Shown here piece after piece: positions 1-6,301 of a DNA stretch of 15,661 nt. Origin of the DNA: a virus; UHGV virus genome UHGV-0232198. One strand, given 5' to 3'. How positions within the stretch are numbered: the stretch's first letter is position 1; each line of letters begins with the position of its first letter. The position numbers and the translations under genes were made by a program. The notes under the pieces were generated by a model that worked only from the letters and a program-made list of their open reading frames with translations, was not told the origin of the DNA and searched no databases.

Positions 1-1524
1 ACAGGAAGCGTTGATCCACGCCCTGCAGGAAAAGCTGAGCAACCGGGAACGCGAAATAGACCATCTGCAGGCGCAACTGGATAAGCTGCGCCGGATGAAC
101 TTCGGCAGTCGTTCCGAAAAGGTATCCCGCCGTATCGCGCAGATGGAAGCTGACCTGAACCGGCTTCAGCAGGAAAGCGATGCCCTTACCGGTCGGGTTG
201 ATGATCCGGCGGTGCAGCGCCCGCTGCGTCAGACCCGCACCCGTAAACCGTTCCCTGAATCACTCCCCCGTGATGAAAAGCGGTTGTTCCCCACAGAGTC
301 CTGTTGCCCGGAGTGCGGAGGTTCGCTGAGCTACCTGGGTGAGGATGCCGCCGAACAGCTGGAGCTGATGCGCAGCGCCTTCCGGGTTATCCGTACGGTG
401 CGCGAAAAGCATGCCTGTCGTCGGTGCGATCGCATCGTTCAGGCCCCGGCGCCTTCGCGCCCCATCGAGCGGGGTATCGCCGGACCGGGACTGCTGGCCC
501 GTGTACTGGCGTCAAAGTATGCAGAACACACACCGCTGTATCGCCAGTCTGAAATATACGGCCGTCAGGGCGTGGAGCTGAGTCGCTCACTGCTGTCGGG
601 CTGGGTGGATGCGTGTTGTCGTCTGCTGGCACCGCTGGATGAAGCCCTTCAGGCCTATGTACTGACCGATGGCAAACTCCATGCCGACGATACGCCCGTC
701 CCGGTGCTGTTGCCAGGTAATAAGAAGACGAAAACCGGGCGGTTGTGGACGTATGTGCGTGATGACCGCAACGCCGGGTCAGTGCTGGCACCGGCAGTAT
801 GGTTCGCGTACAGCCCGGACAGAAAAGGCATCCATCCTCAGACCCATCTTGCCGGCTTCAGCGGTGTGCTGCAGGCGGATGCCTATGCGGGGTTCAATGA
901 GCTCTACCGTGACGGCCATATAAAGGAAGCCGCATGCTGGGCCCATGCCCGGCGTAAAATCCACGATGTTCACGTTCGCACTCCCTCAGCGCTCACAGAT
1001 GAAGCGCTGAAACGGATCGGCGAGTTGTATGCCATCGAAGCGGATATCAGGGGAATGCCGGCAGAACAGCGGCTTGCCGAACGGCAGTTGAAAACGAAAG
1101 CGCGTCTTAAATCACTGGAAAACTGGCTGCGTGAAAAAGTGAAAACCCTGTCGCGACACTCAGAGCTGGCAAAAGCGTTCACCTATGTACTGAACCAGTG
1201 GCAGGCGTTGACGTACTACGCAGACGACGGCTGGGCTGAAGCAGATAACAACATCGCTGAAAATGCGCTGCGGACGGTCAGTCTGGGACGTAAAAACTGG
1301 CTGTTCTTCGGCTCAGACCACGGTGGTGAGCGGGGAGCGCTGCTGTACAGTCTGATCGGGACGTGCAAACTGAATGGAGTAGATCCAGAACGCTACCTTC
1401 ACCATATCCTTGACGTCATTGCTGACTGGCCGGTAAAGCGGGTTGGTGAACTGCTGCCGTGGCGGGTTACTCTGCCAGCCTGACCAACTTCACTTCGTCA
1501 ATACGGTTCTCGCTATACGCTTAC
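1..1524. mobile_element. IS66-family insertion sequence, 3' portion (left part lies outside the window); right end proposed at 1524
   Basis: Contains a tnpC-like ORF. The top strand ends ...CGCTTAC at 1518-1524, whose reverse complement GTAAGCG is what I recall as the typical IS66-family terminus. The GC-rich IS body changes abruptly to AT-rich sequence after about 1525. Confidence 0.6.
2..1483 (+). CDS. tnpC: IS66-family transposase TnpC, 5'-partial (frame is open from the window start; the track's start at 11 is a TTG)
   Basis: N-terminal heptad/leucine-zipper-like region (LQAQLDKLRRMNFGSRSEK), zinc-finger motif CCPECGG...CRRCDRI, and a long C-terminal DDE-type domain; overall resemblance to IS66 TnpC from memory. 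Confidence 0.8.
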   Translation, partial: QEALIHALQEKLSNREREIDHLQAQLDKLRRMNFGSRSEKVSRRIAQMEADLNRLQQESDALTGRVDDPAVQRPLRQTRTRKPFPESLPRDEKRLFPTESCCPECGGSLSYLGEDAAEQLELMRSAFRVIRTVREKHACRRCDRIVQAPAPSRPIERGIAGPGLLARVLASKYAEHTPLYRQSEIYGRQGVELSRSLLSGWVDACCRLLAPLDEALQAYVLTDGKLHADDTPVPVLLPGNKKTKTGRLWTYVRDDRNAGSVLAPAVWFAYSPDRKGIHPQTHLAGFSGVLQADAYAGFNELYRDGHIKEAACWAHARRKIHDVHVRTPSALTDEALKRIGELYAIEADIRGMPAEQRLAERQLKTKARLKSLENWLREKVKTLSRHSELAKAFTYVLNQWQALTYYADDGWAEADNNIAENALRTVSLGRKNWLFFGSDHGGERGALLYSLIGTCKLNGVDPERYLHHILDVIADWPVKRVGELLPWRVTLPA

Positions 1525-1534
1525 GTTTAATGCT

Positions 1535-1756
1535 ATGCACGACACAATTGGGAATGCTAACGAAAACGGTAATGCCAGAGATGGGCATATCTATGTTATT
1601 GACACCTTTCTTTGGTACATGGCCCGATGCGGTTACACCTTGCAGAAATCAAGGAAAAATGTCGAATTTAAAGATATGCAGGATGACATTGAGCGCAGCA
1701 AAGAATGGCGGCGTGAGGCATTTTCTCGTGTTATTTCAGAACAGCACAAAGTCTAG
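1535..1756 (+). CDS. hypothetical small protein (73 aa); may be untranslated or a remnant next to the IS end
   Basis: ORF in an AT-rich segment directly after the proposed IS end; no convincing Shine-Dalgarno upstream; the frame is open back to the tnpC stop. Confidence 0.3.
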   Translation: MHDTIGNANENGNARDGHIYVIDTFLWYMARCGYTLQKSRKNVEFKDMQDDIERSKEWRREAFSRVISEQHKV

Positions 1757-1770
1757 TGATGGAGAGGAAT

Positions 1771-2079
1771 ATGGACGAATCAAGAAAGAAGTTTGAGGAA
1801 TACGTTGCCAAAAAATTGAAATTACCATTCGAGATGATAACCGAGGCAAGAAATGGTGATAGGTACTTCGCATTTTCAAGCATGGATATTCGTCACTCCT
1901 TAAATGAGTGGTGGACTTTATGGCAGGCATCGCGAGCAGCTATCGAGATTGAGCTGCAAAAGCCAAAGAAAGGCCCACTTCCCGGTGATTATCACATTGG
2001 CTATGACTCAGGTGCAGAATCGCAATACGAAAGCGATGTAGAGGCTATCCGCGCCGCTGGAATCAAAGTGAAGGAGTGA
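1771..2079 (+). CDS. hypothetical protein (about 102 aa from ATG 1771; the track's ORF starts at GTG 1756, with another ATG at 1759)
   Basis: GGAGAGG at 1761-1767 lies just upstream of ATG 1771; AT-rich codon usage differs from the flanking sequence; no recognisable motif. Confidence 0.45.
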   Translation: MDESRKKFEEYVAKKLKLPFEMITEARNGDRYFAFSSMDIRHSLNEWWTLWQASRAAIEIELQKPKKGPLPGDYHIGYDSGAESQYESDVEAIRAAGIKVKE

Positions 2080-2083
2080 GTAT

Positions 2084-2338
2084 ATGCCATTTATAAAATT
2101 AACCATGCAATGCAGCATCTATCAGCCACCAAGCACAGGCGTGATAGAAAGCACCAGAAGTGCATATGAGCCCTTGTACGTTAACTCTGACAACATCGAA
2201 ACCCTATTTGAGGCCGGGATTACGATTGTAAGAATGGCAAGTGGTGAGCGGTTCGATGTTATTGAGAAACCAGAAGCTATTTTGGCGTTAATTAATCCAT
2301 GCGTGCAGAAGGTGAGCAATGAGGAAACTAACGTTTGA
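2084..2338 (+). CDS. hypothetical protein (84 aa)
   Basis: Good RBS AAGGAG at 2071-2076 with 7 nt spacing to ATG 2084; the 3' end overlaps the ninB start by 20 nt. Confidence 0.45.
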   Translation: MPFIKLTMQCSIYQPPSTGVIESTRSAYEPLYVNSDNIETLFEAGITIVRMASGERFDVIEKPEAILALINPCVQKVSNEETNV

Positions 2339-2759
2339 ACTAAGAAGCCCCATTCATCAGCAGAACGCCATTCAAGCTATCCAGCAAATCCTTCCAGACC
2401 CAACAAAACCAATCGTAGTAAGCATTCAGGAACGCAACCGCAGCTTAGACCAGAATCGAAAGCTTTGGGCTTGCCTTGGTGACGTTTCGCGTCAGGTTGA
2501 ATGGCATGGTCGATGGCTGGATGCAGAAAGCTGGAAGTGCGTTTTTACAGCAGCATTAAAGCAGCAGGACGTTGTTCCTAACCTTGCCGGGAATGGTTTT
2601 GTGGTAATAGGCCAGTCAACCAGCAGGATGCGTGTAAGCGAATTTGCGGAGCTATTAGAGCTTATACAGGCATTCGGTACAGAACGTGGCGTTAAGTGGT
2701 CAGACGAAGCGCGACTGGCTCTTGAGTGGAAAGCGAGATGGGGAGATCGGGCAGCATGA
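2319..2759 (+). CDS. ninB: NinB-like protein (lambda NinB/Orf family recombination mediator)
   Basis: 146 aa; N-terminus [50 protein letters not shown] is nearly identical to my recollection of lambda NinB; RBS GGTGA upstream. Confidence 0.9.
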
Positions 2760-4100: not shown

Positions 4101-4285
4101 ACGCCACAATTCAAACGATACCAGAGCTTCTTATCCAGACACGAGGCAATCAGACCGAAGTGGCGAGGATGCTTTCCTGCGCAAGAGGAACAGTGCTCAA
4201 GTACAACCGAGACAGCAAAGGCGAACGTCACGTAATAGTTAACGGCGTCCTGATGGTCAAACAGGGCAAGAGAGGAAGACGATGA
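4097..4285 (+). CDS. ninH: NinH-like small DNA-binding protein
   Basis: 62 aa; core GNQTEVARMLSCARGTVLKY matches the lambda NinH core (GNQTEVARRLKCSRGTVRKY) as I recall it; ATGA overlaps on both sides. Confidence 0.8.
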   Translation: MNATIQTIPELLIQTRGNQTEVARMLSCARGTVLKYNRDSKGERHVIVNGVLMVKQGKRGRR

Positions 4286-4905
4286 GACTCGAAAGCGTAG
4301 CTAAATTTCATTCGCCAAAAAGCCCGATGATGAGCGACTCACCACGGGCTACGGCTTCTGACTCTCTTTCCGGTACTGATGTGATGGCTGCTATGGGGAT
4401 GGCGCAATCACAAGCCGGATTCGGAATGGCTGCATTCTGCGGTAAGCATGAACTCAGCCAGAACGACAAACAAAAGGCTATCAACTATCTGATGCAATAT
4501 GCACACAAGGTATCGGGGAAATACCGTGGTGTGGCAAAGCTTGAAGGAAATACTAAGGCAAAGGTACTGCAAGTGCTCGCAACATTCGCTTATGCGGATT
4601 ATTGCCGTAGTGCCGCGACGCCGGGGGCAAGATGCAGAGATTGCCACGGTACAGGTCGTGCGGTTGATATAGCCAAAACAGAGCAGTGGGGGAGAGTTGT
4701 CGAGAAAGAATGCGGAAGATGCAAAGGTGTCGGCTATTCAAGAATGCCAGCAAGCGCCGCATATCGCGCTGTGACGATGCTAATCCCAAACCTTACTCAA
4801 CCAACCTGGTCACGCACTGTTAAGCCCCTGTATGACGCTCTGGTGGTGCAATGCCACAAAGAAGAGTCAATCGCAGACAACATTTTGAATGCGGTCACAC
4901 GTTAG
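4282..4905 (+). CDS. Q: Late-gene antiterminator Q (lambda type)
   Basis: 207 aa; near-identical to my recollection of lambda Q, including the Cys4 zinc motif CRDCHGTGRAV...CGRCKGVGYS; followed by a PR'-like promoter. Confidence 0.9.
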   Translation: MRLESVAKFHSPKSPMMSDSPRATASDSLSGTDVMAAMGMAQSQAGFGMAAFCGKHELSQNDKQKAINYLMQYAHKVSGKYRGVAKLEGNTKAKVLQVLATFAYADYCRSAATPGARCRDCHGTGRAVDIAKTEQWGRVVEKECGRCKGVGYSRMPASAAYRAVTMLIPNLTQPTWSRTVKPLYDALVVQCHKEESIADNILNAVTR

Positions 4906-5047: not shown

Positions 5048-5228
5048 AAGCACGACCTTTCTGAAAGCACATCAAACCAAATACCAGACAGACAAAAATA
5101 ATCACCTTATCCGCTGTGGCTACGGTGCGGTGTGCTTTGCATAAAAGAAAACCAGCGCAATGGCTGGCTTCGTGAAAGCGGGTGGCAAGAGGTTGTTGTC
5201 GATTAAAAATAAATACAAGGAGTAGCTT

Positions 5229-5750
5229 ATGCTAAGCGAAACAGCGAAAGATATCGCAGGATATGAAGGTAAATACTCCGTAACTACTGATGGCCGCGTT
5301 TATTCTCATTCGAGAGTTGATTCTCGTGGAAGGTTACAGAAGGGCAGATGGCTTAAGCCTGTTAATCATAGTGATGGTTACTTGTATGTAAATCTCCGCG
5401 ACAAAGGAGCACTTAAAAAACATTACATTCACAGGTTAGTGGCGGCTGCATTCATTGATAATCCAAACTCGCTTCCGCAGGTAAACCACATAAATGGAAT
5501 CAAGTCTGACAACAGAGTAGATAATCTTGAGTGGGTTACTGGCTGCCAGAATATGGTCCATGCAAGCAAGTCAGGATTGCTAAACCCAATCAGTGGTGAG
5601 CGCCACTATTGTGCAAAACTCACTACTGAGCAAGTGAAAGAAATACGTGCGTGCAAATCAATGTCGCAGCGTGAAATGGCGAGAATGTACGGCGTATCAA
5701 AAGCAACAATTGCAGGAATTCTTAACTATAAGACATGGGTTATTTATTAA
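5229..5750 (+). CDS. HNH homing endonuclease (NUMOD4-like N-terminus, HNH core, C-terminal helix-turn-helix)
   Basis: 173 aa; GYEGKYSVTTDGRVYS (NUMOD4-like), HINGIKSDNRVDNLEWVT (HNH H-N-G...N...N-L core), C-terminal TTEQVKEIRACKSMSQREMARMYGVSKATIAGILNYKTW (HTH-like); strong RBS AAGGAG at 5217-5222; AT-rich relative to neighbours. Confidence 0.85.
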   Translation: MLSETAKDIAGYEGKYSVTTDGRVYSHSRVDSRGRLQKGRWLKPVNHSDGYLYVNLRDKGALKKHYIHRLVAAAFIDNPNSLPQVNHINGIKSDNRVDNLEWVTGCQNMVHASKSGLLNPISGERHYCAKLTTEQVKEIRACKSMSQREMARMYGVSKATIAGILNYKTWVIY

Positions 5751-5977
5751 CTAATTAATTAAGAGCTCCCATTACAGGATGCATTTATGAGTGCATCCAT
5801 TAATGGTCGTTAAATGCGATTGATATGGATACTGCGCAAACAGTATCCCTAATGGTCTCCTCGCGACAACTGTGACGAGCAAACAGCGTTACCGCAAAAT
5901 GTAGCCTGGATTTGTTCTATCAGTAATCGACCTTATTCCTAATTAAATAGAGCAAATCCCCTTATTGGGGGTAAGAC

Positions 5978-6301
5978 ATGAAGATGCCAGAAAAACATGA
6001 CCTGTTAGCCGCCATTCTCGCGGCAAAGGAACAAGGCATCGGGGCAATCCTTGCGTTTGCAATGGCGTACCTTCGCGGCAGATATAATGGCGGTGCGTTT
6101 ACAAAAACAGTAATCGACGCAACGATGTGCGCCATTATCGCCTGGTTCATTCGTGACCTTCTCGACTTCGCAGGGCTAAGTAGCAATCTCGCTTATATAA
6201 CGAGCGTGTTCATCGGCTACATCGGTACTGACTCGATTGGTTCGCTTATCAAACGCTTCGCTGCTAAAAAAGCCGGAGTAGAAGATGGTGGAAATCAATA
6301 A
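5978..6301 (+). CDS. S: Class I holin S (lambda type; dual-start S107/S105)
   Basis: 107 aa; [45 protein letters not shown]... is essentially lambda S; three hydrophobic segments; Met1-Lys2-Met3 dual start. Confidence 0.95.

Follow-up and report, generated by a model that had tools for sequence, protein, structure and literature searches.

An IS66-family insertion sequence within a small early-operon gene of a P22-like Escherichia coli prophage

Almost certainly, the DNA analyzed here records the transposition of a complete, recently active IS66-family insertion sequence (IS) of 2,440 bp into a P22-like Escherichia coli prophage. The window, i.e., the whole stretch of 15,661 nucleotides from virus genome UHGV-0232198, contains only the right-hand part of the IS, the contig having been broken off within this repetitive element during metagenome assembly. 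As tnpA, tnpB, the left terminal repeat, and the left copy of the target duplication fall outside the window, they were read from a near-identical isolate genome, E. coli GCA_900449085.1, in which the corresponding locus (designated L005) lies on a 4.92-Mb contig and was found by exact look-up of a 73-aa remnant open reading frame (ORF).

By analogy with its family, the DDE transposase TnpC would attach both ends of the IS to phosphates of the target strands with an 8-bp stagger, and gap repair would then give rise to the duplication of GTTTAATG that is observed. The target lies in the rightward early operon, past the replication genes and a terminator-like hairpin, inside a 107-codon gene. 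One accessory gene would thereby be lost and the genome would grow by 2,448 bp; inactivation of the prophage does not have to follow, since the region tolerates insertions and an N-type antiterminator encoded by the phage should allow transcription to proceed across the IS as far as Q. The significance is mostly one of annotation: the boundary of the mobile element is fixed at 1524/1525, and the presence of the element explains the start of the contig. The features are listed in Table 1.

Table 1. Features of the insertion and its surroundings (window positions unless L005 is given)
Feature	Position	Strand	Evidence
IS66-family insertion sequence of 2,440 bp, right part (1,524 bp; element positions 917-2440)	1..1524	+	100% identity to full copies L001 2085-4524 and L005 7551-9990
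tnpC (DDE transposase), codons 19-511 and TGA stop	2..1483	+	Pfam PF13007, PF13005, PF03050, PF13817
Right terminal inverted repeat (IRR), ACGGTTCTCGCTATACGCTTAC	1503..1524	+	Reverse complement against the left repeat (IRL) GTAAGCGTACAGCGCGAACCGT, 20/22
8-bp target-site duplication, right copy, GTTTAATG	1525..1532	.	Flanks the IS on both sides in L005, single in L003 and L004
3' fragment (codons 32-107 and stop) of the split 107-codon phage gene (phrog_15705)	1526..1756	+	100% identity to L003 and L004 6002-6232
PF26207/phiTE_015-family gene	1771-2079	+	Pfam/PHROG hits
FlbD-like gene	2084-2338	+	Pfam/PHROG hits
ninB	2319-2759	+	Pfam/PHROG hits
tnpA	L005 7643-8020		NF047595, 92.8 bits (cut-off 74); PF01527
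tnpB	L005 8017-8364		NF033819, 119 bits (cut-off 50); PF05717
tnpC	L005 8414-9949		NF033517, 460 bits (cut-off 180)

Extent and family of the element

The sequence-only reading had the window open inside an IS66-type tnpC and the element end at position 1524 (...CGCTTAC), and both placements hold. A stop-free frame of 493 aa, closed by TGA, hits all four IS66 transposase domains in Pfam (LZ_Tnp_IS66, zf-IS66, DDE_Tnp_IS66, and DDE_Tnp_IS66_C), the third of them with E=3.5e-104 over positions 1-283 of a 284-position profile. The complete protein has 511 aa, is annotated as an IS66 family transposase (WP_061351262.1), and scores far above the NCBIfam cut-off (Table 1). The window is short of its first 18 codons (53 nt) because the metagenome contig begins inside the element: the first base of the window corresponds to element position 917 and tnpC nucleotide 54.

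Several observations bear on the right end of the IS. When window positions 1-1700 were compared by megablast with 5,426 complete E. coli genomes, ten records matched with at least 99% identity, the matches ending at 1524-1531 in unrelated contexts, where the independent E. coli copies show 99.9-100% identity; thousands more records matched at 80-90%. An alignment of the window with two other copies is identical through ...CTATACGCTTAC and differs from the very next base on, while the left ends of two copies start agreeing at GTAAGCGTACAGCGCGAACCGT. The reverse complement of the last 22 bases of the element, GTAAGCGTATAGCGAGAACCGT, pairs with this left end to form 22-bp inverted repeats that begin GTAAGCG. 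The GC content is about 0.59 in the IS versus about 0.42-0.46 in the adjoining phage DNA, falling to about 0.42 across the junction. The match ends in independent copies, the three-copy alignment, the inverted repeats, and the drop in GC content therefore place a real terminus exactly at 1524.

Elements of the IS66 family end in terminal inverted repeats of about 20-30 bp that start with 5'-GTAA. The family, including its terminal repeats, is said to have been described by Han et al. in 2001 and Gourbeyre et al. in 2010. Membership of the present element is indicated by the domain set of TnpC, the order tnpA-tnpB-tnpC with an ATGA overlap between the first two genes (L005 8017-8020), the inverted repeats, and the 8-bp duplication. 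The leftward extension proposed by the sequence-only reading was made in the isolate, where the two upstream genes, the left inverted repeat, and a matching 8-bp direct repeat are all present in a complete element of 2,440 bp.

Target duplication, occupied and empty sites

The window and L005 align over 11,757 nt with 99.98% identity (one mismatch and one 1-nt gap), the junction included; on this comparison, they carry one and the same insertion event. The left junction in L005 reads ...AGATGT GTTTAATG / GTAAGCG, with the upstream flank ...CCAGAAAGATGT (in longer form, ...AGATGTGTTTAATG / GTAAGCGTACAG), and the right junction reads CGCTTAC / GTTTAATG CTATGCAC. Sites lacking the element were also recovered: four complete E. 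coli genomes contain window 1525-1790 with 99-100% identity, and in two of the four (loci L003 and L004) the sequence runs ...AGATGT GTTTAATG CTATGCAC, with the 8-mer occurring once only. Its presence at both junctions in L005, together with the single copy in the empty sites, indicates that the 8-mer, previously just a candidate, is the true target duplication of a simple insertion, with no loss of phage DNA. A duplication of 8 bp is the size reported for IS66 (PMC6778807; PMC12898284).

Among the 5,426 complete E. coli genomes that were searched, not one spans the junction between the IS and the phage, and the occupied junction was found neither in IMG/VR nor among the GTDB species representatives. 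The 73-aa remnant ORF is recorded on 7 contigs, including that of the window (ENA metagenome assembly ERZ27317282, k141_81406) and that of L005.

The disrupted gene

The sequence-only reading suspected that the insertion had truncated or separated an early gene, and an early-operon gene is indeed split. Its intact form is an annotated coding sequence of 324 nt (5909-6232 in L003/L004; WP_032160449.1, hypothetical protein), which the IS interrupts after nucleotide 100, between codons 31 and 32. Gene callers read the remainder as a 73-aa ORF at 1535-1756; this ORF is a gene remnant rather than a gene.

The sole PHROG hit of the protein is phrog_15705, a group of unknown function (E=1.1e-51), and sequence searches of Pfam, NCBIfam, and the PDB gave no match. 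The family is nevertheless strongly conserved, with 46 invariant columns among 24 aligned sequences, and its members of about 100 aa come from prophages of E. coli, Salmonella, and Enterobacter, and from phages of Klebsiella, Yersinia, Pseudoalteromonas, Shewanella, Vibrio, and Synechococcus. An AlphaFold2 model built on the 24-sequence alignment is all-helical and of moderate confidence (pLDDT 71.5, pTM 0.44); a Foldseek search of the PDB with this model returned nothing below E=4.

The split cuts an invariant N-terminal block (WL..G.YLP..RDFH.QKD) from the remaining protein, so the phrog_15705 product should be inactive. The lineage may thus be regarded as a natural knockout of phrog_15705, usable for probing what the gene does. 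The gene is probably a small accessory ORF of the nin region that is dispensable to the phage.

Position in the phage genome

In L005, the upstream part of the region comprises, in order, cro, cII, a 53-aa ORF, and genes for an O-type initiator (273 aa) and a DnaB-type helicase (458 aa); next come a 55-aa ORF and the gene interrupted by the IS. This part is followed by the PF26207 gene, the FlbD-like gene, ninB, ninD/E/F, a 72-aa ORF, ybcO, rusA, ninH, and Q, and further on by an HNH gene and the genes for holin, lysozyme, Rz, the P22-type small and large terminase subunits, portal, scaffold, and coat. The Pfam hits include NinB, NinF, YbcO, RusA, NinH, Antiterm (Q), holin, Phage_lysis, GP3_package, Terminase_6, and P22_portal, and homologs of scaffold and coat as well as ninD and ninE were also identified. 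The succession of replication genes, tR2 position, small ORFs, ninB to ninH, Q, lysis genes, and P22-type head genes is collinear with Sf6 and follows the lambdoid, P22-like gene order; the host element is an E. coli prophage of the lambdoid, P22-like kind (Lederbergvirus-type). No RNA genes were detected in the window by Rfam and tRNA scans.

The sequence-only reading put the insertion at the end of the replication module, upstream of ninB. It lies upstream of ninB, but neither inside a replication gene nor at the end of one: the split 107-codon gene is the second ORF downstream of the intact helicase gene and the third upstream of ninB. Both replication genes, the state of which had been questioned, are intact in L005. 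Downstream of the helicase gene, at L005 7203-7227, there is a strong terminator-like hairpin at the place where Sf6 has its annotated tR2, and the IS is situated in the variable stretch between this hairpin and ninB. Its genes are co-directional with the early-right operon of the phage. The genes at 1771..2759 are undisturbed and match Sf6 genes 48-50 in order.

The immunity region (L005 1569-4066) is mosaic, with two ORFs (123 and 145 aa) in the place of rexAB and a cI protein that is presumably near-identical to lambda cI. An endonuclease cassette of about 705 nt (NUMOD4/HNH_3; window 5196-5900, gene 5229-5750) lies downstream of Q (4282-4905) and ahead of the holin gene (5978-6301); in a close relative (L009), no more than 67 nt occupy this place, and the segment looks like a gain of a homing endonuclease in the late-leader region. 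A second NUMOD4/HNH endonuclease gene is located in the same E. coli genome past the right end of the window (L008 12079-12804), between homologs of gp4 and gp10. A 34-aa ORF ahead of this gene bears a weak resemblance to the beginning of gp10 (PF11134) and points to a short duplication caused by the endonuclease insertion.

Spread and relatives of the element

Seven insertions of the element were examined. Six of them are 2,440 bp long with no mismatches among them, while the seventh is interrupted by a nested IS903B. Each is flanked by a perfect 8-bp duplication, different in every case (AAATAAGT, ATTTATTC, GTTTAATG, GTATAATT, TTTCTTTT, GGTTGTTC, and CCATAGTT). Copies with 100% or 99.9% identity reside on Klebsiella plasmids, and the exact TnpC sequence occurs on 268 contigs. 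The element thus appears to have been active recently, given the seven sites with perfect duplications, the six base-identical copies, and the identical copies on Klebsiella plasmids.

Copies in RefSeq, on E. coli chromosomes and Klebsiella plasmids, show no mismatches to the element over 2,440 bp, share its inverted repeats and 8-bp duplications, encode TnpA WP_001324957.1, TnpB WP_000612629.1, and TnpC WP_061351262.1, and differ only in the insertion site. The element is therefore already known and catalogued, and its insertion here is a routine one. As to its name, the labels in RefSeq and PLSDB and those of clusters go no further than "IS66 family", and the sole named relative found is ISEc8.

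ISEc8, known from the Stx2-converting phage 1717 and from Stx2a prophages of O157:H7, belongs to the same family, has the same architecture (alignment length 2,442 bp), and likewise resides in lambdoid prophages. ISfinder treats elements with about 95% nucleotide identity or more as isoforms and those below this level as distinct ISs. The window element is only 86.4% identical to the ISEc8 annotated in phage 1717 over its full length and thus counts as a related but different IS.

State of the prophage and alternative explanations

The sequence-only reading considered that the insertion might mean a defective or decaying prophage. Such a defect could arise in three ways: a polar block of Q and the late genes, the elimination of an early gene that the phage requires, or a genome beyond the P22-type headful, the packaged chromosomes of which would lack terminal redundancy. 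Taken together, this is an unlikely outcome.

With regard to genome size, the IS adds 2,448 bp to a phage that packages by headful. In GCA_900449085.1, the segment that begins with erf and closes with the tailspike gene covers about 36.2 kb including the IS, and the corresponding missing left arm measures about 6-7 kb in Sf6; the total length of the prophage is probably about 42-43 kb, which is near the P22 headful. The latter amounts to about 43.4 kb. In a further, quite improbable scenario, the IS would bring the genome to or over the capacity of the capsid, so that the prophage is either grounded or still packaged, in which case the phage would carry an active IS between hosts in a lineage that is at the same time a natural knockout of phrog_15705.

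Signs of damage elsewhere in the prophage could also point to decay, and the isolate assembly indeed contains frameshifts in cI and in the Rha-like gene. Both are single-base differences in T runs. The lambda-type cI gene is split at a T7 run (L005 3700-3726), where lambda cI presumably has T6, and the Rha-like gene (window position ~7655) differs by one T, giving 93 aa in the isolate versus 180 aa in the window. As the frameshift in the Rha-like gene is absent from the window, homopolymer error in long reads is the likeliest cause of these differences, rather than real decay. Apart from the split gene, all phage ORFs of the window are full length, as in relatives: Q (207 aa), holin (107 aa), lysozyme (158 aa), Rz (155 aa), Rha-like protein (180 aa), gp3 (162 aa), terminase (499 aa), portal (721 aa), scaffold (303 aa), and coat (431 aa). 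The isolate has in addition the remaining head, tail, and ejection genes and a 789-aa tailspike gene.

Two observations speak against a polar effect on Q and the late genes: a scan for terminators turned up no convincing intrinsic one on the + strand within the IS, and L005 carries a gene for an N-type antiterminator (PF25694). A search of L005 for the lambda nut boxB consensus had no hit, and the N-type protein there is not lambda N.

Other P22-like phages provide precedents for both outcomes. In phiv205-1 (MN340231, Lederbergvirus), an ISEc8-like IS66-family element with 86.9% identity to that of the window resides in a P22-like E. coli phage; however, it splits the tailspike gene (L020 2286-4942), an essential structural gene, and not an accessory ORF of the nin region, and the record suggests that a defective prophage is described. 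The Shigella phage Sf6 (NC_005344), on the other hand, is a viable P22-like phage in which IS911 sits in ninG, likewise within the nin part of the early-right operon, with the replication genes to one side and Q to the other; this element belongs to the IS3 family, has about half the size (1,249 bp), and occupies another target gene in the opposite orientation. The nin region of lambda can be deleted as well (nin5). Nothing else in the prophage looks damaged; its description as decaying is not supported, and it should not be dismissed as degraded on account of the IS.

Two other readings that would replace the simple insertion of a whole element, a lone tnpC fragment and an adjacent deletion brought about by the IS, are very unlikely. 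All that is visible in the window itself is a tnpC lacking its 5' end, but this truncation coincides with the end of the contig, the whole element of 2,440 bp is present in L005, and the phage sequence there is exactly contiguous across the IS, bar the 8-bp duplication. An assembly chimera, in which a metagenome contig of the megahit style (ERZ27317282 k141_81406) that starts in a multi-copy repeat would have been misjoined at that repeat, is extremely improbable: this junction is found unchanged, along with its counterpart on the left and both copies of the 8-mer, in the independent 4.92-Mb isolate contig, and 7 contigs have the truncated 73-aa ORF.
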